DNA of 64,000 bases from Candidatus Poribacteria bacterium (GTDB lineage Bacteria > Poribacteria > WGA-4E > PCPOR2b). Position 1 is the stretch's first letter. Each line of letters opens with the position of its first letter. The notes beneath the pieces were generated by a model that was given only the letters and a program-made list of their open reading frames with translations, had not been told where the DNA came from and did no database searches. Positions 1 through 46,752 of the stretch are shown here, one piece after another. A program made the position numbers and the translations under genes. Where the stretch lies: NCBI GenBank assembly GCA_965218095.1, contig OZ244587.1:833599-897598 (forward strand), read 5' to 3'.

Positions 1-3000
1 TCGGGGCCATAACGTCGGGTCAGCTCGCTGCCTAAAATTGTACCGACAACCCGATTTGTATTCTTAATCGGTAAAGTCCCCGTAACTTTTGTCCCATCCC
101 GTAAAGCAGGCTCACAAAGATCTAAAAGGACTTCGTTATCCATAGCCTTTTCCAAACCGTGGTCTTGATCAATTTGGCGATAGCGACCAATTTCCGGTCC
201 AACTTGAGGCTGGTAGAGAACCGGCGAAAGATCGATTCCTTTTGCTTTCCAGTGGTCAACTGCCTTTTTCGGCTCAAGTAAGTCGGTGCAACCCACAAGT
301 TCGTTGACCGTGCGAACCCCCAACTGCGCCATGATTTCACGCATGTCCTGTGCAATGAAACGCATGAAATTCACTACGTGGGAAGGGGCTCCCATGAATT
401 TCTTGCGCAGTTCTGGGTTTTGAGTCGCTACACCCACCGGGCAGGTATCCAGATGGCACACACGCATCATAATGCAGCCGAGCGTCACCAGCGCCGTAGT
501 CGCAAAACCGAATTCTTCGGCACCCAACAGCGCAGCAATAACAACATCTCGACCGGTTTTAAGTTGACCATCCGTTTCCACGATAATACGAGAACGCAGA
601 TTATTCAACACTAAGGTCTGATGCGTTTCCGCCACCCCAAGCTCCCAAGGCAAGCCAGCGTGTTTAATGCTGGTCTGCGGCGAAGCCCCGGTGCCGCCAT
701 CAAGCCCGCTGATCAGCACGACATCCGCGTGTCCTTTTGCCACGCCAGCGGCGATGGTACCAACGCCGACTTCGGATACCAGTTTGACGTTAATCCGCGC
801 ATGGTGATTCGAGTTTTTCAGATCATGGATGAGTTGGGCGAGGTCTTCAATCGAATAGATGTCGTGGTGCGGCGGCGGCGAAATGAGCTCAACCCCCGGC
901 GTCGAGTGACGCACCGTGGCGATCCACGGGTAGACTTTTCGTCCGGGCAACTCACCGCCTTCACCGGGCTTGGCGCCTTGCGCCATTTTAATCTGAAGTT
1001 CCTTCGCATTCACTAGGTAGTTGCTGGTTACGCCGAATCTACCGGAGGCGACCTGTTTAATCGCGCTGTTTTTAGAGTCGCCGTTGGGTTCGAGAAAATA
1101 CCGCGCCGGATCTTCTCCTCCTTCACCGGTATTACTCTTTCCACCTATACGATTCATCGCGATCGCCAGTGCTTCGTGTGCCTCCTTGCTGATGGAGCCG
1201 TAAGACATGGCACCGCTCTTGAAACGCTTGCAGATTTCTTCAACGGGTTCTACCTCGTCGATCGGAATCGGTTCATCAGGGAACTTCAATTCTAGGAGTC
1301 CGCGTAGGGTCGCCATATTCCGAGAATAGTTATTGATTAACTCCGCGTAGTCTTTATAGACCTCATAGTTATTGGCACGGGCGGCCAATTGCAACTTATG
1401 AATCGTGGCCGGATTGAACAGATGATATTCGCCATCCTGTCGCCACTGAAAATGCCCACCGACGTCCAAAGTACGATTATCAACCGGAATTTCCGGGAAG
1501 GCTGCGTGATAACGCATCAGGGCTTCGCGAGCAATAATCTCAAGTCCAATCCCTTCCACGCGAGTATCCGTCCAGGTAAAATAACGGTCAACAACCTCTT
1601 GCTTGATGCCGATAGCTTCAAAGATCTGCGCCCCTCGATACGACTTGATGGTTGAAATTCCCATCTTCGCCATGACCTTGACCACACCTTTGGTCACTGA
1701 TTTGATGTATCCCTTGACGGCGTCTTGATACCCAATATCCGTCAGTTGCCCTTCGGCGAGCATGTCCGCTAGGCTTTCAAATGCCATGTAAGGATTAACC
1801 GCTTGGACACCATACCCGATCAGCAGACAGAAGTGATGAACTTCCCGAGGTTCACCCGATTCAAGTGCGATACCGACTTTCGCGCGCGTGCCACCCCGAA
1901 TCAGATGGTGGTGGAGGCCTGCGACAGCCAGCAGCGCGGGAATAGGTGCGGCCCCTTTGTCAACGCCGCGGTCAGACAAGATGAGAATGGTAAAGCCCTC
2001 TTCGATCGCGCGATCGGCGGCCTCAAAGAGCCCATCCATCGCTGTTTCAAGTCCGCCCTCTCCATCAGCGACGTTAAATAGGATTGGAAGGGTAGTGGAT
2101 TTGAACCCCGGTTGATCGACCTGACGCAACTGCTCTAACTCCTCGTCTGAAATAATTGGAGTATCGAGGCGAATCTGACGACAATTCTCCGGCTCCGGCA
2201 CGAGCAGGTTCCGCTCGGGGCCAATTGTTGTTTCAGATGAAGTGATGATTTCTTCCTTGAGCGGATCCAGCGGCGGATTGGTCACTTGCGCGAATAGCTG
2301 TTTGAAATAGTTGTAAAGTAGCTGCGGTCGGTTAGAGAGTACCGCCAAAGAGGCATCATTCCCCATCGAGCCAACAGGGTCACGACCGATTTTCGACATC
2401 GGGCCAAGGAAAATGCGCTGATCTTCAAATGTATACCCGAAAGTCTGTTGGCGTTGTAAAATTTTGTCGTGGTCTGTTTCGGGGGCCTTCGGTTCAACCG
2501 CCGGCAGGTCTTTCAATGAAATTAGGTGCTCATCTAGCCACTGGCGATACAGATGCTCAGAAGCAATTTTAGCCTTCGCTTCTTCATCGCTGATGATGCG
2601 TCCCTCGCTCGTATCAATCAGAAGAATCCGACCCGGTTGGAGACGCCCCTTGTAGGCAACCCGCTCGGGGGGTATGTCCAGCACCCCGGTTTCCGAAGCC
2701 AGCACGAGCAGGTCATCTTTCGTGATGTAATAACGGGAGGGGCGGAAACCGTTACGGTCTAGAGAAGCACCAACAACCGTACCATCGGTAAAAGCGATGG
2801 AGGCAGGACCATCCCAAGGCTCCATTAAACAACTATGATATTCATAAAATGCGCGTTTCTCAGCACTCATGCTCTCGTGGTTTTCCCACGGTTCCGGAAT
2901 CATCATCATCACCGAGTGGGGCAGCGACCTGCCAGAGAGTGCAAGAAATTCCAGACAGTTATCGAAAATAGCGGTATCGCTGCCATCCTCGTCAAGGATG

Positions 3001-3872
3001 GGGAAAAGTTTCGGTAAGTCATCACCAAACAACTCAGATGCCAGCATCGCCTGCCGCGTTTTCATCCAGTTCTGGTTCCCGCGCACGGTATTGATTTCAC
3101 CGTTATGAATCATATATCGGTACGGATGCGACCGTGCCCAACTCGGGAAAGTGTTCGTCGAAAATCGGGAATGAATCAGGACAATCGCCGCTTCCATCCG
3201 AGGGGCTTTCAGATCGGGGTAGAATTCGGGGACCTGCATCGGCGTGAGCATCCCCTTATAGACGATAGTTCGGCTAGATAGGCTCGGAATGTAGAAATCT
3301 TTATCCATCCCGCCGTATCGGATGATATTGGAGGCGCGCTTCCGAATCACATACAACTTGCGCTCAAAGGCGAGGTCATTTTGGATATTGGGGCTTCTGC
3401 CGATAAAGATCTGCCATACAAGAGGCTCGGAAGAGCGGGAAATCGGTCCTAAATAGAAATTATCAGTAGGGACTTTCCGCCAACCTAAAACCGTTTGTTC
3501 TTCTTCAGTAACAATTTCTTCAAGCTTCCGCTGACAGCGGTGACGTAGTTCACGGTCCTCGGCATCGGTGAAAAACACCATACCAACGCCATAGTGCTTT
3601 GGATTGGGTAGATCAATTCCCACGCTTTCGCAGGCGTGCTGTAGGAATTTGTGCGGGACTTGCATGAGAACGCCCGCTCCGTCGCCGGTGTTTTCTTCGG
3701 CACCGCGGGCCCCCCGATGGTCAAGACAAGTCAGCGCATCTAGTGCCTGACGCACGAGCACATTGGATTTTTCACCTTTGATGTTGACGATAAAACCAAT
3801 CCCACAAGCATCATGTTCGTAAGCGGGATTATAAAGTCCTTGCTTCTGCGGAATACCTATCTTTCCTTTCAT
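1..3872 (-). CDS. gltB: Glutamate synthase (GOGAT) large subunit, partial; C-terminus lies beyond the window start
   Basis: Reverse-complement translation from the ATG at 3872-3870 gives [27 protein letters not shown] (N-terminal amidotransferase domain), then the FMN-binding core ([27 protein letters not shown]) and the GXGXG domain. Absent from the ORF track because it runs off the edge. Confidence 0.92.
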
Positions 3873-4258
3873 ATCAGCCTCTCTTGTTCAACTTCGTTCC
3901 GAAAAACCTGTATCTATTTGCGACTTCTGCTGCGGTCTGTGTTATCTTATCTGTGACTTCCTTTCCGCCCTGATAGAAATCTGACCATACTTCCTCGAAT
4001 CAATGACAAACGCTTTGCCAGAAGGGATCGGCAGACACGAGGAATGTCCACCCAATAGTCCGAAACCTAACGATTACTTGCTGAAACAGTTAGGTAAGAT
4101 GAAGGTTCAGGAAGGAAAATCATTTCGTGGGGATCTGTTACGCTCGCTTCGAGAACACTGCATTCGATAAAAAATTGTGGCGAATAGACTTGTAATAATA
4201 CATCACATAAATTGCCCATGTCAAGAAAATTTCCTTGTCATCTATCCAAACGATTTTG

Positions 4259-5989: not shown

Positions 5990-6694
5990 ATGCGCCTCGA
6001 AAAATTCCTTGCTGAATCCGGTATTGCTTCTCGACGGGACACCAAAAGACACATCCACGCCGGCCGAGTCACAGTCAACGGCAAGCGGGTGTTTATCCCC
6101 GGCACCCCCATCGATCCACAGCAGGATGACATTAAATTTGATAGCAAACAGATACCTGGGAAACCGAAGAAGATTTACCTAATGCTAAACAAACCGGCGG
6201 GATACCTTACCACGGTGCGTGATGATCGGGGGCGTACGACGGTCATGGATCTGGTACGCGACATTCCTAAACGCATCTATCCGGTCGGACGGCTGGATGT
6301 CAATACGGAAGGGCTTCTGCTGATGACGAACGATGGCGTGTTCACACATCGAATCATCCACCCGAATCACGAGATCAAGAAAACATACATTGCATGGGTA
6401 GAAGGACGTCCAGGTCAGCGGGCGATTCGGCAACTGCGAGAAGGGGTAGAAATTAAGGGTGGGTTAACTGCTCCAGCAGTGGTGATTCAAATTGGGCGAA
6501 AAAAAGGGTTGACCCAATTCGAGCTCATCATCCACGAGGGAAAGAAGCGGCAGATTCGGCGCATGTTCCACGCCGTGGGGCATAAAGTGGTATACCTCAA
6601 ACGGGTTCAGATTGGATCCCTTTCACTTGGCAAGCTCCCGATTGGGAAGTATCGTCTGTTGACGGCGGCTGAAGTCGAGGGTTTACGAAACTAA
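5990..6694 (+). CDS. Pseudouridine synthase, RsuA/RluB family (S4 domain plus catalytic domain)
   Basis: MRLEKFLAESGIASRRDTKRHIHAGRVTVNGKRV (S4 domain) ... YPVGRLDVNTEGLLLMTNDG (catalytic Asp motif) ... KKRQIRRMF. The alternative GTG start at 5948 would add 14 aa. Confidence 0.85.
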   Translation: MRLEKFLAESGIASRRDTKRHIHAGRVTVNGKRVFIPGTPIDPQQDDIKFDSKQIPGKPKKIYLMLNKPAGYLTTVRDDRGRTTVMDLVRDIPKRIYPVGRLDVNTEGLLLMTNDGVFTHRIIHPNHEIKKTYIAWVEGRPGQRAIRQLREGVEIKGGLTAPAVVIQIGRKKGLTQFELIIHEGKKRQIRRMFHAVGHKVVYLKRVQIGSLSLGKLPIGKYRLLTAAEVEGLRN

Positions 6695-6730
6695 AAAAGC
6701 CCATATCGCAAAGGATATGGGCTTTTTTAT
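6695..6730. terminator. Bidirectional rho-independent terminator between convergent genes
   Basis: aaaaaaGCCCATATCgcaaaGGATATGGGCtttttt: a 9-bp perfect stem flanked by an A-run and a T-run. Confidence 0.75.
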
Positions 6731-6747: not shown

Positions 6748-7647
6748 CTACTCCATCTCGCTTTTGACACGTTGTAGCATAAGCATAGCCTGCTTTCGGA
6801 TGTCATCATCTTTGGCATTACTTAACATCTCAAGCGTTGCAATTGCCAATTGGGACTTACCTTGGATCGCGTAAGTAACTCCTAAATAATACTGCGCGGG
6901 TTCATAGGACTCGCTGTCGGAATATTTGTCGATGACGATTTGGAAATGCTTTTCAGCTTTTTGGAAATAGTCTTTCTCATTTTCGCCGGCAGCGTTCTGC
7001 CCGTACTGGAGTCCCAAATTCACATACAATTCCGGCAACAGTCCGGTTTTGTTATTCGGGTCGTGTTTCACCACTGTATCGAATAGGGGCTTTCCTTTTT
7101 CAAGTTTGCCTCGCTTGATGTAAATCAGTGCAAGTCCGGCGGTAGCCTTTAGATCGTTCGTATCCCTCTGGACCGCTTCCTTCAGCTTCTTAAATTCCTC
7201 TTCATCTTTGAGGGCGCTTTCCATCAATGTGGTAAATTCTTGGGGTGGCCGATAACCGGGATTGAGGCTTATGAAATCCCCCTCGGCACTGAGGAATACA
7301 ACTGCCGGATATCCGGTAACGCCGTATTTTCTCTGGGCATCAGCGTTTTCCGGGCGGTCTGTATCTTCAGGATTGACCTTGAGGTTGACAAACTTCTTTG
7401 AAAGCTCAATGATTTTTGAATCCGTAAATGTTTCGGCATCCAGCCGCTTACACCAGCCTCACCAATCGGTGTAGAAGTCCATCATGACTGGCTTGCCTGT
7501 TTTTTGGGCTTCTGCCAACCCTTTCTCGATTGACTCCTCCCACTGAATCTTTCCTGTTGCCAGTGCTGCCGGACTTGCAACAACAGCCAGTAACAGGGTG
7601 GCAAGCACGATGCGCCATCTTTGTCTCCAAACAGAATTTAACATCAT
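6748..7647 (-). CDS. Secreted thioredoxin-like (DsbD-gamma/Thioredoxin_7-type) plus TPR fusion protein with an in-frame TGA at 7459-7461; candidate selenoprotein with a U-G-W-C motif
   Basis: A single minus-strand frame runs from the ATG at 7647 (signal peptide MMLNSVWRQRWRIVLATLLLAVVASPAALA) through ...KPVMMDFYTDW-TGA-GWCKRLDAETF...GYPAVVFLSAEGDF... into the TPR region (6748-7227). The ORF track splits it at the TGA; both pieces share the same frame. Confidence 0.55.
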
Positions 7648-7689
7648 TTTTCTCCTTTGAAGGAAGTTTTTTCTCCTTTGAAGGAAGTT
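7648..7689. repeat. Exact tandem duplication (2 x 21 bp) containing the Shine-Dalgarno of the downstream selenoprotein gene
   Basis: ttttctcctttgaaggaagtt occurs twice; on the minus strand this reads aacttccttcaaAGGAGaaaa twice, immediately before ATGATG. Confidence 0.8.
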
Positions 7690-7771: not shown

Positions 7772-7987
7772 TTAGCCTCCAGACGTCGGCTGGTCAGCAG
7801 CAGATTCTGCTTGCATCTGTTCAAGGGCTGAAGCACTAATTGTTTTGCTGCTCAATGTTGTCCGACACTTCTGGCAGGTCGTCACCAGTTTCACTAGATT
7901 GCTCCGCCTGCCGAGTTTGTTCTGCTTCTGTTCCGTTTCGACGTAACGCTTGCAGCGAGGGCACCACTGCTGTTGGGGTGTCAACAT
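7772..7987 (-). CDS. Small zinc-ribbon protein (CPRC...CQKC), hypothetical
   Basis: MLTPQQQWCPRCKRYVETEQ...TCQKCRTTL; GGAGGG RBS 7 nt upstream of the ATG at 7987. Confidence 0.5.
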   Translation of the reverse strand: MLTPQQQWCPRCKRYVETEQKQNKLGRRSNLVKLVTTCQKCRTTLSSKTISASALEQMQAESAADQPTSGG

Positions 7988-12198: not shown

Positions 12199-13040
12199 CT
12201 AGGTTCTGTTGACATTTGAGTATAAGGTTGTGGCATAATAGAAGAATGATGCCAATAATCTTACCCGATGACCAATGGAAAAAGATATACTCGTTTCTTC
12301 TAACTTGTCCCAACATCTATGTTGGCAACGAAGCGACAACACGCCGCTTTATCGAAGCTGTTCTCTGGGCGACCCGTAGCGGTGCTCAATGGAGACTTCT
12401 GCCAGACACCTATGGTAAATCGAACACCCTCTATAAGCGTTTTGCTCGGTGGTGCGACAAAGGGGGCTTCACACAGATGCACCACCACTTCGCCTCTGAC
12501 CCCGATATCGAGTCGCTTATTGTGGACAGTACAATCATTCGAGCGCACCCGTGTGCGGCGGGCACCTTAAAAAGCTGGCACCTTAAAAAAAAGGGTGGCA
12601 CTGAAAACCAAGCGTTAGGTCGCTCTCGCGGGGGATTCAGTACAAAAATTCACATCACAGTTGACGGCCTGGGTAATCCCCTAAGAATTCATCTGACCCC
12701 CGGTCAAAGAAACGACATAGCAGAAGCAGAAGGGTTGATACTTGGATATAAAAGCGAGTATGTGATTGGAGACAAGGGATATGACTCCGACAATTTTATC
12801 GCGGTTATTGAGGCGAATGGAGCGATTGCGGTGATACCGCCCAAAAGTCATCGTGTGGATCAAAGAGATTACGACAAACATCTGTACAAAGAGAGACATC
12901 TGGTTGAATATTTCATTAACAAGATAAAATGGTATCGCCGCATCTTCTCTCGGTTCGAGAAGTTAGCTATCCGTTATTTTGGATTTCTCAGCTTTGTCGC
13001 CACTCTTATATGGCTCCCTTGAAATGTCAACAGAACCTAG
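12199..13040 (+). mobile_element. IS5-family insertion sequence, copy A (intact), inserted between yidD and yidC
   Basis: Terminal inverted repeats ctaggttctgttgacattt ... aaatgtcaacagaacctag flanked by CTAG on both sides. Encodes a single 268-aa DDE transposase. A TTGACA-N17/19-CATAAT outward/inward promoter lies in the left end. Confidence 0.85.
12216..13022 (+). CDS. IS5-family DDE transposase (N-terminal DUF4096-like region plus DDE_Tnp_1), orfA-orfB fused
   Basis: MMPIILPDDQWKKIYSFLL...VDSTIIRAH (first D) ... GDKGYDSDN (second D) ... VEYFINKIKWYRRIFSRFEKL (E/K). Relative to copies B and C it carries a 16-nt net insertion at the A-run that fuses the frames. Confidence 0.88.
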   Translation: MSIRLWHNRRMMPIILPDDQWKKIYSFLLTCPNIYVGNEATTRRFIEAVLWATRSGAQWRLLPDTYGKSNTLYKRFARWCDKGGFTQMHHHFASDPDIESLIVDSTIIRAHPCAAGTLKSWHLKKKGGTENQALGRSRGGFSTKIHITVDGLGNPLRIHLTPGQRNDIAEAEGLILGYKSEYVIGDKGYDSDNFIAVIEANGAIAVIPPKSHRVDQRDYDKHLYKERHLVEYFINKIKWYRRIFSRFEKLAIRYFGFLSFVATLIWLP

Positions 13041-14295: not shown

Positions 14296-14829
14296 TCAGT
14301 TGATATACAGGTACTTTTTCCAGGATTCGTCATAAGATCGACCACCACGGCTTAGGTGCAGATAGGAGATGATTGAGGGTGCCTTAGGAGAACGCTTGGG
14401 AAACATCCGCGCTTCATGAGGCTTCCGATCTCCCTTGTTGGAGTTGCATCCTTTACACGCCGTCACGACATTTTCCCACGCCGTTGAACCTCCTCTCGAA
14501 CGCGGGACGACATGATCAATTGTTAGCGTTGATGGAGGAAAATGTTCATGACAATATTGGCATGTATATTTATCGCGCACTAGGACATTCTTACGTGAAA
14601 ACTTCACAACGCAGTGAGGGATATGGACATAATTCACCAAACGGATCACCAATGGCACTTTCATCGAAGTGGTTGGCGAGCGAATTTCCCGATCAGAAAA
14701 TTCCTCCGGGCATGCAACACCCTTGACGAGCATCTTCATTGCACGCTTTAAGTTACAAACGTTAATCGCCTCATAGCTTGCATTTAAGACAAGTACACTT
14801 GCTTCCATAACCCCTGCTCCAATTACCAA
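14296..14829 (-). CDS. HNH endonuclease-family protein
   Basis: CQYCH...DHVVPRSRGGSTAWENVVTACKGCNSNKGDR is a canonical HNH/zinc-finger nuclease motif. 4 nt upstream of the lipoprotein gene. Confidence 0.8.
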   Translation of the reverse strand: MVIGAGVMEASVLVLNASYEAINVCNLKRAMKMLVKGVACPEEFSDREIRSPTTSMKVPLVIRLVNYVHIPHCVVKFSRKNVLVRDKYTCQYCHEHFPPSTLTIDHVVPRSRGGSTAWENVVTACKGCNSNKGDRKPHEARMFPKRSPKAPSIISYLHLSRGGRSYDESWKKYLYIN

Positions 14830-27053: not shown

Positions 27054-27959
27054 TTACTCCCATGATATGCTTTCCATAGTTATGGATAAATCATGTTCTG
27101 TAGGCATAGTATAAATTGCCGTTGTATTCACACTTGAATGTCCTAATATTTTCGCAACTCTATCAATTGGTTGTCCAGCATCAATTAAATTCTTGGCGCA
27201 GGTATGCCTAAACACGTGTGGAGACAGATGCTTTATCTTGGCTATATAGGCATGTTTCTGAATGATATAGCGCACCCCACGATCTGTCAACGGCATCCGT
27301 TTTTGTCCGTAAAACAGAAACCGTTCCCGCTCTGGATTTGCACCTGTTATCAATGTGGCTTGTTTATCTTCAAGCGACTCCAAGTAATCCTTTAGGATGC
27401 GCACCGCAGTTGAGTTTAACGGGATATTCCGCTGTTTAGTCCCTTTGCCTTCACGAACAGTAATCATATTACTATTTTCAGACAAAGTAACATCAGAAAC
27501 TCTTAAATTACAAAGCTCACTAACGCGCACGCCTGTATGGAGCAGCATTGTGATAATCGCCAGATCCCTGATATTCCCTGATTTACGCACGGCCCTGAGC
27601 AATGCGAGTTGCTCCTTACGCGCCAACGACCGCGGACCAAGCGGTTCCTCAGTGACAGCGCGTATGCCGTCAACAGGGTTATTCGGAATGAGATCGTTCT
27701 GTTGCGCCCATTGACAAAAACTAGAAATACTCATTAGACTGCGATTAATTGTTGACGGCTTTTTGCCCCAATCAAGCATTGCATTTCGATAGTCGATTAC
27801 GTCCATCGGTGTAATGCTTTCTGGGTGCAGCGGTTCCCCGGTCGCGAGCTGAAACCAATGTGAAAATGAGCGGAGATCCGCCATGTAAGCTTTAATGGTT
27901 TGCTCGGATTTATCTTGATCATGCAGAGAATCGCGATAATCTTGTGATAGATTGTCCAT
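27054..27959 (-). CDS. Tyrosine site-specific recombinase/integrase (XerC/XerD-like, SAM-like N-terminal domain)
   Basis: 301 aa. Box motifs ...TGVRVSEL..., HVFRHTCAKNLIDAG, LGHSSVNTTAIYT (catalytic R-H-R-Y). Confidence 0.88.
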   Translation of the reverse strand: MDNLSQDYRDSLHDQDKSEQTIKAYMADLRSFSHWFQLATGEPLHPESITPMDVIDYRNAMLDWGKKPSTINRSLMSISSFCQWAQQNDLIPNNPVDGIRAVTEEPLGPRSLARKEQLALLRAVRKSGNIRDLAIITMLLHTGVRVSELCNLRVSDVTLSENSNMITVREGKGTKQRNIPLNSTAVRILKDYLESLEDKQATLITGANPERERFLFYGQKRMPLTDRGVRYIIQKHAYIAKIKHLSPHVFRHTCAKNLIDAGQPIDRVAKILGHSSVNTTAIYTMPTEHDLSITMESISWE

Positions 27960-34090: not shown

Positions 34091-35418
34091 CTACCTGTCA
34101 CCGACCAAATTTGAGCAACAATTGTGACCTATTGAAGTATAACCCATTTCCTTCCATACCTTGTGGGCATAAGCAATAGCCACTTCACCCGGCGGATTGA
34201 ACCCCTTGACGCTGGGCGGCGGCTGACCGGGCTCACGGTGTTCAGGCCAAGGTGACCAGTAATCGTTCTCGTAAGCCTTGCGGACGGATTCCTCGCGAAA
34301 ATCGGGAATCTCAAACGGGGCACCGTTCTCCAAACAAGAACGCCACGCCTGAATGCCGACCATCGCCATCTCTAGCCCGCAATAAACGTCGAAATACGGC
34401 GGCTTGTTTTTGCGAATCGCCTTGGCGAAATGGTAGATTGTGAAGAAGTCGCCCCCGCTGTGGCCTGCCTGTCGCGCTTCCTCGGCGTAGTGGGGAAATT
34501 CGGGTTTGTAAATCTTTTCGCGTTCATCGCCCTTCCGCAGATTCCACGGTTCATGCTTCACCCGCAGGGCAGCTTTGTCCCCGGTTCGTAGGTTCTCCAT
34601 CAGTCCGCGCGTCCCATGATCTGATACCAGACGCTGTGGCCGCGCATCGTCAGCCCCATAATCCGCACGACCAATTCGTTGTCCATACGGCAGAGGATGA
34701 TGCCGCCGGGGTCGCCACGGCGGACATGCAATTTTTCGGCGTCGTTTTCGGAGCGGGGAATCGACAGCGCATTCACACTGACCGGATGGGTGTCGGTGAT
34801 GTACATAATCGGCGCAAGCGCGTGAGAGCAGTAATAGGTGGACGGAATCCAATTGCGCCAATGGTTCACCCCCGGTGATAATAAATTGATACCGCGTGAA
34901 TCGAAGGGGTGGTTATACTCTCCTTCCCCGTATTGCATCTCGCCGACCTCGCCGGCCTTGTAAAGGCGACGCATCTCCTGATTGTAGGCAAAATACGGGT
35001 AATTCTCGGCGAATAGATAGGTCTTGCCGCTCTCTTCCACGGCGCGTGCCAGAGCAACCCCGTCCGCGAGAGTCCCGCACGCCATCGTTTCACTCATCAC
35101 ATACAGCCCCGCCTCAAGGGCTTTGACAGCAAAGGGAGCGTGCTGGTGAAAGTAGTTTGCCAGAACAACGGCGTCCATGTCGTGAGAGAAAAACTGGTCG
35201 TAATCGGTGTACGTTGCGACGTTCAGCCGTTCACCTGCTTCGCGTAGCTTCGTCTCCCAAGTATCGCACAGCGCGACCAACTCCATGCCGACATGCTTCG
35301 CGCCATTCGCAAATCCTATTCCGCGTCCGACTCCAACGACGCCAACACGAATCTTATTTCTGTCTGTTTTCTTTGCCATGGACTTGTTCCTTCTATTTGA
35401 ACCTTGCGAAGGTTTCAA
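34091..35418 (-). CDS. Gfo/Idh/MocA-family oxidoreductase with an extended C-terminal domain; apparent frameshift at a C4/G4 homopolymer (34654-34657)
   Basis: The N-terminal ORF (34600-35418; RVGVVGVGRGIGF...) and C-terminal ORF (34091-34861) overlap in different frames. Adding one G restores ...VVRIMGADDARPQRLVSDHG..., which aligns with the paralogs. Confidence 0.7.
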
Positions 35419-38622: not shown

Positions 38623-39394
38623 CTAGGTTCTGTTGACATTTGAGTATAAGGTTGTGGCATATATAAGGTTGTGGCATAATAGAAGAATGATGCCAATAAC
38701 CTTACCCGATGACCAATGGAAAAAGATATACTCGTTTCTTCTAACTTGTCCCAACATCTATGTTGGCAACGAAGCGACAACACGCCGCTTTATCGAAGCT
38801 GTTCTCTGGGCGACCCGTAGCGGTGCTCAATGGAGACTTCTGCCAGACACCTATGGTAAATCGAACACCCTCTATAAGCGGTTTGCTCGGTGGTGCGACA
38901 AAGGGGTCTTCACACAGATCCACCACCACTTCGCCGCCGACCCCGATATCGAGTCGCTTATTGTGGACAGTACAATCATTCGAGCGCACCCGTGTGCGGC
39001 GGGTGCCGAAAAAAAAAGGGTGGCACTGAAAACCAAGCGTTAGGTCGCTCTCGCGGGGGATTCAGTACAAAAATTCACATCACAGTTGACGGCCTGGGTA
39101 ATCCACTAAGAATACATCTGACGCCCGGTCAAAGAAACGACATAGCAGAAGCAGAAGCGTTGATACTTGGATATAAAAGCGAGTATGTGATTGGAGACAA
39201 GGGATATGACTCCGACAATTTTATCGCGGTTATTGAGGCGAATGGAGCGATTGCGGTGATACCGCCAAAAAGTCATCGTGTGGATCAAAGAGATTACGAC
39301 AAACATCTGTACAAAGAGAGACATCGGGTTAAATGTTTCATTAACAAGATAAAATGGTATCGCCGCATCTTCTCTCGGTTCGAGAAGTTAGCTG

Positions 39395-40502
39395 AGGGGT
39401 GTGCATAAATATAGTTGACATAATCAAGCCAAAAGGGTTTCCTATTGTTATCATAGCAAAAGGAGCCCCAATATGGTACAAAGACCAATGTTGGCTGATT
39501 ATGTCACTCTTATTATGCAACTCTTTGAGCAGTTTATGCAACACCGTATTGACAAACCAGGTGTCACACACGCAAAACCATTGACATATTCAACCACCTC
39601 GTTTATCATTTTCTTCATGTTGATGCAGTTTCACGGCATCTATGGCTTCAAAACGCAATGGCGGTGGCTAATCAATCACCCAGAAGTGTTACAAATGCTG
39701 GGGTGGCAACAGCCCCCTCATCGAACCACGATTGCACGTCGCTATAAGGCATTATATGAAGTGATAGAGGCATTTGTATTGTTTATCGGTCAGTATGCCA
39801 CTGACTTGTCCCAACAATTCAACTTGGCTCATCTGGTAGCCGACAAAAGTTTATTTAAGGCACGAGGACCCGTCTGGCATCAAACTGACCGCAAAGCAGG
39901 AAAAGCACCTAAACATCTACGCAACCTCGACACCGATGCCACGTGGAGCAAGAGTGGTTATCATGGCTGGGTCTATGGCTACGGACTTCACATTATCTGC
40001 ACACAAGGTGCGTTCCCAACACTGATAACTGTGCACCGTGCGTCGGTCTCCGAAAGTTGGGCGATAGATGCTAAAGCGTCTGAGATTCTGACACAACTTT
40101 CACCGCAGACACTCACTGCCGATGATGCCTATACCCAAGCAGACCGTATCCGTCGTTGGGCGAAAGCACAAGTCGCTTTGATTACCCCGGCACTTAGATG
40201 GACAAAGGGACGGTTTGCCAAGGCGTATCATCGATTTATCAACCAACCCAAGCAGCGTCTCTGTTTAAGCAAACGTCGCAGTTCGGTTGAACCGTTGTTT
40301 GACTTGATTGCTAAAGTGATAGGCACCACTCCTCAACAGAAGCAGTTACCGGTCAAGGGGTTTTTCAATGTACGCTGTTGTTTAGCTATCGGGGTGTTAT
40401 CAGTGCAAGTGGCTATGATTGCCAATGCCATATGGAAGTTACCTGCTCGCAATATCTCTCATATGGCGGCTGTTTTCCAATGAACTACTATGCACACCCC
40501 TC
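39395..40502 (+). mobile_element. Compact IS (1108 bp) nested inside IS5 copy C
   Basis: Perfect 14-bp IRs gaggggtgtgcata / tatgcacacccctc. An 8-bp target duplication agttagct from the host IS. Encodes a single 336-aa transposase. Confidence 0.75.
39473..40483 (+). CDS. DDE transposase (IS4/IS701-like, DDE_Tnp_1 superfamily)
   Basis: DTDATWSKSGYHGWVYGYGLHI (first D region) ... TADDAYT ... RRSSVEPLFDLIAKVIG (Y-R-E-K signature). Confidence 0.75.
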   Translation: MVQRPMLADYVTLIMQLFEQFMQHRIDKPGVTHAKPLTYSTTSFIIFFMLMQFHGIYGFKTQWRWLINHPEVLQMLGWQQPPHRTTIARRYKALYEVIEAFVLFIGQYATDLSQQFNLAHLVADKSLFKARGPVWHQTDRKAGKAPKHLRNLDTDATWSKSGYHGWVYGYGLHIICTQGAFPTLITVHRASVSESWAIDAKASEILTQLSPQTLTADDAYTQADRIRRWAKAQVALITPALRWTKGRFAKAYHRFINQPKQRLCLSKRRSSVEPLFDLIAKVIGTTPQQKQLPVKGFFNVRCCLAIGVLSVQVAMIANAIWKLPARNISHMAAVFQ

Positions 40503-43150: not shown

Positions 43151-44074
43151 ACCCAAGTTGCTAGTAATTGAAAATCCATGGGTTTTCCGTTAAAGTAGAG
43201 GTAATCCAAACCATAATACCTCAAAGGAGAAACCCATGGACATCCAAATTGCAACCATTTTCTATCTCTGTGACAAGCTCTTAGAAGCACTCAACTCAAA
43301 ACCACACCCACAAACGCAGATGTCTGATGCCGAAGTCATGACCACCGGCATCGTCGCTGCGTTGTTCTTCGGGGCAAACTTGCAAACCACTTGTGACTTT
43401 CTAAAGACTCATGGCTATATACCCAAGATGCTTTCAAAAAGTCGATTCAACCGACGACTTCATCGAATTAAACCGATGTTCACCACATTGTTCAAAATCT
43501 TGGGACGAAGCTATGTGCAACTTAATCAACAGAAAATCTATGCACTGGATACCATACCAATTGCTGTTTGTTCCGCATTCGTCGGTCAAAAATCTACACC
43601 GATAAGGCATATCGAGGCTATCAAGCGTCCAAACGTCGGTATTTCTATGGCTTGAAAGTTCATCTGCTAGTGACTGCGAGTCGACACCCTGTTGAATTTT
43701 TTGTGACCCCAGCCAGTACAGGGGACGTTGAAGGGTTACAGTGGTTTGACTTCGACTTGCCACCGGGCTATGGTGACAAAGCATACAATAATTATGAGAT
43801 AGAAGATATTGTTACATCAGTCGGAGTCGAATTAAAGCCAGTACGCAAGAAGAATTCCAAGCGGCTGTATCCACCATGGGAGACCTACTTGGCTAATTAC
43901 CATCGTAAGTCTGTTGAGACGGCTGGCAGTTTGATTAACAAACTGCTTCCACGTTCAATCCATGCAGTAACGCAACACGGATTTGAATTGAAAGTGGTCT
44001 TGTTTGTATTGGCTAGCAGTATCAATCAGCTCTGAGTTCACTCACATATTCGATGAATAGGTCGCAACTTGGGT
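43151..44074 (+). mobile_element. IS982-family insertion sequence (924 bp)
   Basis: IRs acccaagttgc / gcaacttgggt (ACCC ends typical of IS982). An 8-bp direct repeat TAGAGTTA flanks the element. Confidence 0.8.
43236..44035 (+). CDS. IS982-family transposase; apparent frameshift at an A5 run (43588-43592)
   Basis: MSDAEVMTTGIVAALFF...LDTIPIAVCSAF | SKIYTDKAYRGYQASKRRYFYGLKVHLLV...GDKAYNN... One extra A fuses ORFs 43236-43655 and 43568-44035. Confidence 0.7.
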
Positions 44075-46464: not shown

Positions 46465-46752
46465 ATGACGCTTGGAAAAGTTGTGGGAACGGTCGTTGCA
46501 ACACGGAAAGATGAGAAATTAATCGGCAGTAAGTTGCTGATTGTGCAGGAGACAGATCTCAATGGAAACCCGGTCAGTAAATACACGGTTGCTGTCGATG
46601 CTGTTGGCGCAGGTGTGGGTGAACTAGTACTCACCGCATCAGGCAGTTCAGCGCGTCAAACAAGCATCACCAAAGACAAGCCTGTTGATGCGGTGATTAT
46701 GGCTATCGTTGATTCGATTGAAGTTCACAGGGAAATTCGGTTTCAGAAGTGA
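46465..46752 (+). CDS. Bacterial microcompartment vertex (pentamer) protein, EutN/PduN/CcmL family
   Basis: MTLGKVVGTVVATRKDEKLIGSKLLIV...TVAVDAVGAGVGELVLTASGSSARQT...PVDAVIMAIVDSIEV closely matches the EutN_CcmL fold (compare PduN: VAVDAVGAG.GEWVL..GSSARQ...DAAI.GIVDSI). Promoter-like TTGACT-N17-TACTAT and RBS GGGGAAAG upstream. Confidence 0.8.
   Translation: MTLGKVVGTVVATRKDEKLIGSKLLIVQETDLNGNPVSKYTVAVDAVGAGVGELVLTASGSSARQTSITKDKPVDAVIMAIVDSIEVHREIRFQK

Follow-up and report, generated by a model that had tools for sequence, protein, structure and literature searches.

The DNA analysed here is a 64-kb stretch of contig OZ244587.1 (the window; positions follow its numbering, and minus-strand features discussed in the text run from high to low, in the direction of reading). 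Its minus strand carries a single 299-codon frame, from an ATG at 7647 to a TAG at 6750-6748, that is open save for one TGA at 7461-7459, codon 63. This locus is very probably one recoded gene making a thioredoxin-tetratricopeptide repeat (TPR) protein that contains selenocysteine (Sec), and we infer from sequence comparisons that Sec is inserted at codon 63. The gene and its parts are as follows.

6748-7647, minus strand: the complete gene of 299 codons, one of them UGA (Sec, proposed), with its terminal TAG at 6750-6748, from the frame translation
7558-7647, minus strand: predicted Sec-type (secretory) signal peptide, residues 1-30, read from the sequence
7225-7545, minus strand: thioredoxin-fold domain of the DsbD-gamma / DsbH / Thioredoxin_7 type, residues 35-141, from Pfam, a PDB sequence search and Foldseek
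7459-7461, minus strand: the in-frame TGA, codon 63, the proposed selenocysteine, in the column of the N-terminal nucleophilic Cys of CxxC
7450-7461, minus strand: redox motif U-G-W-C, codons 63-66, from the alignment (Poribacteria consensus U-[G/S/P]-x-C)
7434-7446, minus strand: apical hairpin of a candidate selenocysteine insertion sequence (SECIS), CGGC at 7446-7443, loop UGGAU at 7442-7438 and GCCG at 7437-7434, from comparative data and published SECIS rules
7424-7462, minus strand: the full candidate SECIS region with a possible lower helix, from RNAalifold and pairing counts
7306-7308, minus strand: Pro114 in G-Y-P, at the cis-Pro-loop position of thioredoxin folds, invariant in 23 sequences and preceding a strand at 114-118 in the structure model
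6763-7209, minus strand: C-terminal all-helical TPR domain, residues ~147-295, from Pfam and from the model, which has eight helices with a predicted local distance difference test score (pLDDT) >90

A preliminary description of the window had joined two minus-strand open reading frame (ORF) pieces that lie in one frame and are split by the TGA alone. We recovered the same translation, in which codon 63 is flanked as GKPVMMDFYTDW-*-GWCKRLDAETFTD. The downstream piece, given there as an ORF at 6748-7227, is indeed in this frame, although its upper boundary is the first TTG start in a mechanical ORF list and the open stretch begins right at the TGA. The active-site context reads DW-U-GWC-K, with the TGA standing where the redox motif has its first Cys, and Cys66 is near-invariant in the alignments of both orthologues and more distant homologues. 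The N-termini of the orthologues read MLNSVW, matching the second ATG (7644), which may be the true start.

We searched one genome per species (GTDB) for orthologues with tblastn, reading through the stop, and obtained 79 loci, 78 of which cover the TGA site. All 79 belong to Candidatus Poribacteria, and their protein identities are 32-73%. The codon-63 column holds TGA in 78/78 informative loci and TGC or TGT in none. Every orthologous ORF contains exactly one in-frame TGA (79/79), and these ORFs terminate in TAA (50), TAG (27) or TGA (2). Upstream of the TGA, in codons 32-62, the mean entropies of codon positions 1, 2 and 3 are 0.63, 0.36 and 1.12; downstream, in codons 64-140, they are 0.62, 0.46 and 1.30. 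Because variation is dominated by the third position on both sides, both sides are translated in this frame under purifying selection. The residues directly flanking the TGA are the best conserved of the protein and align without gaps to single-chain Cys homologues. Gene order is also shared across the phylum, with jag, mnmE, a Zn-ribbon gene and the selenoprotein gene followed by convergent rluB-like, HAD and pdxJ genes. The MnmE encoded in the window shares up to 82% identity with its counterpart in locus L001 and, taken with the orthologue scan, this suggests that the window itself comes from a member of the Poribacteria.

Outside the phylum, distant homologues of 270-310 residues have a signal peptide, a thioredoxin domain and helical repeats, and read DFYTDW-C-GWC-KRLDA. 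One of them is annotated as Planctomycetota, and some bear the Joint Genome Institute name 'thioredoxin-like negative regulator of GroEL'. We examined the DNA of six of these proteins of the same architecture, and all six carry TGC at the codon-63 column. Thus the placement of the TGA at the catalytic Cys, proposed in the preliminary description, holds, and comparing the codon in relatives, a check that it had suggested, gives TGA in 78/78 Poribacteria orthologues and TGC in the Cys homologues.

The architecture of the protein was examined with Cys substituted at codon 63 in the domain searches. Residues 31-159 match the Pfam families Thioredoxin_2 (1e-15, 58.4 bits), Thioredoxin_7 (1.3e-15, 57.7 bits), Thioredox_DsbH (46.2 bits) and Thioredoxin; the first three all exceed their cut-off of 27 bits. 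Residues 147-280 match TPR families (TPR_19, TPR_1, TPR_2 and others). The PDB sequence search returned 2kuc (2.1e-13) and the C-terminal domains of DsbD among the matches listed. As a structure model we used the AlphaFold prediction for the orthologue P0001, which is 72% identical to the window protein (mean pLDDT 91.8; predicted template modelling score 0.79). In this model a strand at 53-57 leads to the recoded residue, 62 in P0001 numbering, which lies at the N-terminus of a helix at 63-72. After the strand and before the helix is the classical position of the nucleophilic Cys in a thioredoxin fold. Foldseek matched the catalytic domain to DsbH (2ju5) and DsbD-gamma with target-normalised TM-scores of 0.70-0.79, root-mean-square deviations (rmsd) of 2.3-2.8 A and 21-27% identity, and the TPR part also matched designed TPR proteins. 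Pfam, the model and Foldseek therefore agree on the fusion of a DsbD-gamma-like thioredoxin fold to a C-terminal TPR domain, as first described.

The predicted signal peptide has a basic n-region (RQRWR), a hydrophobic core (IVLATLLLAVVA) and A-L-A, with the cut predicted before TGK, so that the N-terminal segment removed would be MMLNSVWRQRWRIVLATLLLAVVASPAALA. Homologues share the same kind of N-terminus, and the model has a low-confidence helix at 4-21, apart from the fold. These features point to one exported protein of ~30 kDa, in which a cleavable signal peptide would be followed by a DsbD-gamma/DsbH-type thioredoxin domain with U-G-W-C and by the TPR domain.

A short hairpin just past the UGA had also been noted in the preliminary description. 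It is present at 7446-7434 and is conserved at synonymous sites; its stem, however, is the 4-bp CGGC/GCCG, with the preceding G facing an A. The spacing from the UGA to the loop is 16 nt, and the G at loop position 2 is followed by another G. Nucleotides +15 to +28 after the TGA (CGGCTGGATGCCGA) are near-invariant among 75 distinct sequences, third codon positions included. Arg68 is always CGG (71/71), Leu69 always CTG (79/79) and Glu72 always GAA (70/70), Asp70 is GAT in 77/79 cases, and Ala71 is encoded 70 times by GCC and nine times by GCT, whereas other Leu, Arg and Ala columns of the same gene use three to six codons each. The mean third-position entropy of codons 68-72, 0.26, is the lowest of 287 five-codon windows (median 1.30), and the longest run of nucleotide columns with at least 97% identity is 9 nt at the hairpin against at most 4 nt elsewhere in the gene. 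As a control for this freeze, the RLDA codons of the six Cys homologues are varied (CGG/CGA/CGC/AGG, CTC/CTG, GAT/GAC and GCG/GCC).

All four stem pairs are standard in 63/63 distinct sequences. Eight of these 63 carry a double change that replaces a G:C pair by A:U (CGG for Arg becomes CAG for Gln, and GCC changes silently to GCT); one further sequence has G:U. The A:U group gains an extra U:A pair and has a predicted stability of -6.7 kcal/mol, compared with -6.8 kcal/mol. Because the eight sequences share a G-A/V-C-S/R-Q motif, the double change is probably a single evolutionary event. The support from covariation is real but thin, and the synonymous-site freeze is the stronger argument; the freeze together with one compensatory change supports a functional RNA. 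With G as its second loop nucleotide, a stem of 4-5 bp and 16 nt of spacing, the element fits published rules for bacterial SECIS elements on these three counts (PMC13188914), each time at the lower limit.

The hairpin may be extended by a lower helix, for which there are two options. RNAalifold chooses the pairing of (G)UGAG at 7462-7458 with UUUAC at 7428-7424, which contains the UGA itself and takes the form (G)UGAG with UUYAC across the phylum; 99% of cells in the pairing counts are paired. The extension proposed in the preliminary description, GUAA at 7451-7448 with UUAC at 7427-7424, can also pair (88%, with 30 unpaired cells) but is the weaker of the two, and the hairpin with lower helix is predicted at -7.3 kcal/mol for the first option and -5.6 kcal/mol for the second. 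Neither helix shows double changes, and coding constraint leaves the two options not decisively separated.

When the window and all loci were searched for the hairpin sequence, it turned up in just this gene and one Cys homologue from outside the Poribacteria, L086, where nearly the same hairpin (CGGCUGGACGCCG, 1175-1187) follows the TGC. This near-identity suggests that sequence coding for KRLDA is predisposed to form a SECIS-like hairpin.

We propose the following course of decoding and catalysis. The UGA at codon 63 would be read as selenocysteine when the mRNA hairpin CGGC-UGGAU-GCCG, with its loop 16 nt past the UGA, recruits SelB with Sec-tRNA(Sec) to the ribosome. Outside the cytoplasm, Sec63 would be the nucleophile that attacks disulfides or oxidised cysteines of the substrate, and Cys66 would resolve the selenenylsulfide in a selenol-thiol couple. 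The enzyme might thereby reduce or isomerise disulfides, or other oxidised cysteines, of envelope proteins, with the TPR domain possibly serving as a module that binds clients, partners or a redox partner.

Several observations weigh against this reading. The hairpin is minimal under the SECIS model, with a 4-bp stem and the lowest allowed spacing, and its energy is borderline to the published limit of -7.5 kcal/mol (PMC13188914), at -6.8 kcal/mol for the hairpin and -7.3 kcal/mol with the lower helix; the minimum free energy of the 46-nt segment is -9.5 kcal/mol. In the region downstream of the UGA, whose folding was another check suggested at the outset, the hairpin fits the SECIS rules for loop, stem and spacing, but shuffled sequences fold as well as the 65 nt that follow the UGA (z = 0.24). 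For this reason the case for the hairpin rests on the comparative data, and we set folding energy aside as evidence. Rfam returned no SECIS or other relevant family, either in a scan of the window at gathering thresholds or in a permissive scan of 7370-7480. The covariation is essentially one double change in one clade plus one G:U pair. The 64-kb window contains no selA, selB, selD or tRNA-Sec gene, nor any other tRNA gene. Finally, export and the direction of catalysis are predictions from sequence features and relatives, and the partner and the function of the TPRs are likewise proposals.

Public annotation of the gene bears on some of the alternative explanations. In a protein search, the five best full-length matches read FYTEW-W-GWCKRLD. 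Dozens of further matches are C-terminal fragments of 175-235 residues, several of which begin right after the TGA column. We checked the DNA of P0001 directly: its 'W' is a TGA, and the gene translated under table 11 gives a stop at the column. Such W calls most likely come from table-4 gene calling on short contigs, the calling table being unrecorded. P0007 begins at a TTG directly after TGA-GGC, and the upstream 61 codons were called as a separate gene. Mishandled calls of this kind, with Trp at the column, a split or a fragment, were seen at loci L088 (85-981) and L089 (412-1308) and in proteins P0001-P0005, P0007 and P0017.

The alternative that survives best is that the UGA is recoded but not as Sec. 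The inserted residue could be Cys, delivered by a SelC*-like tRNA (tRNA-ReC) with SelB at the hairpin, or it could be Trp or Cys through near-cognate read-through stimulated by the hairpin. The retention of the TGA and of the hairpin shows recoding rather than the identity of the inserted residue, and there is a precedent in tRNA-ReC of the SelC* type, which inserts Cys at UGA with a SECIS in several phyla (PMC13582414). Nevertheless, TGC would be enough for a gene that required Cys, as it is in the homologues of other phyla, and the fact that 78/78 species keep a costly UGA and hairpin argues that the inserted residue differs from Cys. Trp at the catalytic CxxC position would abolish redox activity. 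Moreover, SelA, SelB and SelD are on record for one genome of the phylum in which the gene occurs: in Table S4 of Slaby et al. 2017 (PMC5649159), Ca. Poribacteria WGA-3G has two copies of COG1921 (SelA), one of COG3276 (SelB) and one of COG0709 (SelD), and our locus L056, from this same genome, has the TGA gene. According to the same study, most sponge-symbiont bins have SelA and SelB together, and both are enriched in sponge symbionts; a 2026 study (PMC13582414) names nine phyla, Poribacteria included, that have Sec-type group 4 [NiFeSe] hydrogenases. We consider insertion of Cys or Trp unlikely.

Two separate genes, a 62-residue secreted peptide ending at the TGA and an independently started TPR protein, are less probable still, and we regard this arrangement as very unlikely. 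Public gene calls do show such a split, as in L089 with its ORFs of 61 and 235 amino acids; C-terminal fragments of 175-235 amino acids are common, and NCBI labels one 3' fragment 'tetratricopeptide repeat protein [Candidatus Poribacteria bacterium]'. The restart, however, is not conserved, the called downstream products having 235, 216, 204, 186, 185 and 175 amino acids, and the first in-frame start after the TGA in the window lies 78 codons downstream, past most of the thioredoxin domain. On the structure model, the split would cut the thioredoxin fold between strand beta-1 and the active-site helix. Two genes would also leave unexplained why conservation peaks around the stop and why the protein aligns without gaps to the Cys homologues.

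Judged from one genome, a lone in-frame stop in an otherwise intact gene resembles a fresh nonsense mutation, or a sequencing or assembly error for TGC or TGT. The comparative data refute both, leaving them a negligible probability: the same TGA recurs in 78 genomes that were assembled independently, the sequence on either side of it is under purifying selection, and the conserved terminal stop and synteny speak against a pseudogene. The two alternatives that the preliminary description had kept in view, a recent nonsense mutation and two genes, thus fall to the phylum-wide TGA, the lack of a conserved restart and the two-sided coding signature. An ordinary gene in a reassigned code, with TGA as Trp (code 4) or Gly (code 25), would account for the public calls that give W at the column (P0001-P0005, P0049 and P0053), but it is just as improbable and is refuted for the window, since those W residues are TGA in the DNA where checked (P0001), each orthologous ORF has but one in-frame TGA, and TGA ends 11/31 Pfam-supported window genes at their expected length, including pdxJ, yidC and murF, and so remains a stop elsewhere.

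The preferred reading, a recoded Sec-containing thioredoxin-TPR protein, can be set against known systems. UxxC thioredoxin-fold proteins are the commonest type of bacterial selenoprotein. A 2026 review of the prokaryotic selenoproteome (PMC13188914) includes Thioredoxin (PF00085), the UxxC family 'Thiol:disulfide interchange protein' (PF13098), DsbA-like, DsbG-like, Trx7/PDZ (CxxU) and TsoB. The Poribacteria protein resembles the PF13098 family in having Sec at the N-terminal Cys of CxxC and, as a candidate here, a SECIS hairpin in the coding region just past the UGA; PF13098 (Thioredoxin_2) is also its best Pfam match. It differs in adding a C-terminal TPR domain and in being found, in this search, only in Poribacteria, and, with its likeness in domain and motif, it is a possible member of this family (representative WP_011366075.1).

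DsbD-gamma and DsbH are the closest solved folds of the catalytic domain and have CxxC at the same position and an exported location, which is predicted here. Unlike the Poribacteria protein they have Cys, not Sec, and no TPR domain; DsbD-gamma forms one portion of an electron-transfer protein of the membrane, and DsbH consists of a single domain. The corresponding NCBIfam scores are far under their cut-offs (62 against 330 for DsbD, 45 against 190 for DsbH). The same holds for the curated NCBIfam models of selenoproteins. TsoB (NF045694), a rhodanese fusion with a UxxxxU motif (PMC13188914), is partly matched in its DsbD-like C-terminal region, at 81.6 bits against a cut-off of 805. Trx7/PDZ (NF041199), which has Sec second (CxxU) and PDZ instead of TPR, scores 30.2 against 300, and VPGUxxT type 2 (NF041383) and PDO_seleno_TRX (TIGR02187) score 23 against 275 and 17.8 against 185.

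The CnoX/YbbN chaperedoxins (3qou from E. coli and 3qdn from Salmonella) likewise combine an N-terminal thioredoxin-like domain with TPRs at a similar total length, and 3qou is the best whole-chain Foldseek match (E = 7.8e-07, 296 aligned columns). The superposition is nevertheless poor (TM 0.29, rmsd 21 A), identity is 14%, the domain arrangement differs, and 3qou is absent from the best 60 of 145 PDB sequence matches. CnoX is cytoplasmic, and that of E. coli has SxxC, whereas the Poribacteria protein has a predicted signal peptide and UxxC. With these values of TM and identity we rejected membership of CnoX/YbbN, and the architecture is analogous only. A more far-reaching idea, which we hold to be rather doubtful, is that the protein is an exported counterpart of CnoX, in which a Sec-thioredoxin with a TPR client-binding domain would rescue proteins of the envelope when they come under oxidative or halogenating stress within the sponge host; Sec would have become fixed in 78 species, and the minimal, phylum-invariant 13-nt SECIS would mark the lower size limit of SelB recognition.

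The candidate SECIS resembles that of E. coli fdhF in being a coding-sequence hairpin directly 3' of the UGA whose small apical loop contains G residues. The lower helix of the fdhF SECIS includes the UGA, and one of the two possible lower helices here likewise contains it. In contrast to fdhF, the hairpin here is much smaller (upper stem of 4-5 bp), has no evident bulged U and shows no sequence similarity.

Two further features flank the coding region.

7647-7689, minus strand: 21-bp tandem duplication (ACTTCCTTCAAAGGAGAAAAA x2) over the Shine-Dalgarno sequence (Tandem Repeats Finder: period 21, 2.0 copies, 100% match)
6693-6728, both strands: bidirectional intrinsic terminator hairpin, A6-GCCCAUAUC-loop-GAUAUGGGC-U6 (-22.5 kcal/mol, z = -6.06, 0/200 shuffles as stable)

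The duplication is exact and bears out the earlier report of a 21-bp repeat that doubles the ribosome-binding site: the proximal AAGGAG lies at 7657-7652 and the distal copy at 7678-7673. The unit is single-copy at the orthologous loci L003, L009 and L016, which indicates that the duplication is recent and specific to the source genome of the window. The terminator sits between the selenoprotein gene, which it closes, and the convergent rluB-like gene. A simple terminator scan did not list it, probably because the A and U runs lengthen the stem.

Directly upstream of the selenoprotein gene and on the same strand lies a 71-residue Zn-ribbon-like ORF (7772-7987, minus strand) with two CxxC pairs (MLTPQQQWCPRCKRY...CQKCR...). 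It adjoins the selenoprotein gene in 67/79 Poribacteria loci, at up to 91% identity, and has no match in Pfam or NCBIfam.

We also looked at the other pairs of ORFs in the window that are separated by an in-frame TGA. Four lie outside annotated genes and were translated; one is the normal end of a EutN/CcmL gene and the other three appear non-coding by eye. The rest are neighbouring genes, such as murF/mraY, or run antisense to annotated genes. The window's in-frame-TGA ORF pairs, three of them judged by eye, thus yielded no second selenoprotein candidate.

Elsewhere in the window, the following were observed.

3-3887, minus strand: a long ORF cut off by the window's start, of which 1295 residues can be read (...CGIGF...), resembling by eye the N-terminal part of glutamate synthase large subunit; because it runs off the window edge, no long ORF is listed there
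12216-13022, 38890-40483, 43568-44035, 27054-27959 and 14296-14829: mobile-element genes or remnants, comprising IS4/IS5-type DDE transposases (one full, the others fragments), a tyrosine integrase and an HNH endonuclease, among the housekeeping clusters yidC-jag-mnmE and mraW-ftsI-murE-murF-mraY-murD-ftsW-murG
46465-46752, plus strand: an isolated EutN/CcmL gene for a microcompartment vertex protein (Pfam 2.1e-31), among small ORFs that span 3 kb and have no other Pfam matches
34091-35418, minus strand: an apparently split GFO_IDH_MocA-type oxidoreductase in overlapping ORFs 34600-35418 and 34091-34861 in different frames, possibly through a frameshift that marks either a pseudogene or a sequencing error

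Our literature search found no description of a thioredoxin-TPR bacterial selenoprotein, and the literature linking Poribacteria with selenocysteine or selenium yielded no description of this gene. The evidence strongly supports an unannotated, phylum-wide selenoprotein with a conventional mechanism, and those checks from the preliminary description that were run all favoured this reading. General principles are unchanged by it; what is noteworthy is that Cys forms are absent from all 78 species and that the candidate SECIS is very small and almost invariant. The thioredoxin-TPR architecture is an addition to the catalogue of bacterial selenoproteins that no curated NCBIfam selenoprotein model captures, and public annotation misses it, the sampled calls splitting or truncating the gene or placing Trp at the UGA. 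The gene could thus be a simple marker when gene calls in Poribacteria genomes are put right. The compact conserved SECIS, its natural variants and the L086 hairpin provide material for studying switches from Cys to Sec. For the Poribacteria themselves, uncultured symbionts of sponges, the gene implies selenocysteine decoding across the phylum, in keeping with the enrichment of SelA and SelB that has been reported for sponge symbionts (PMC5649159).

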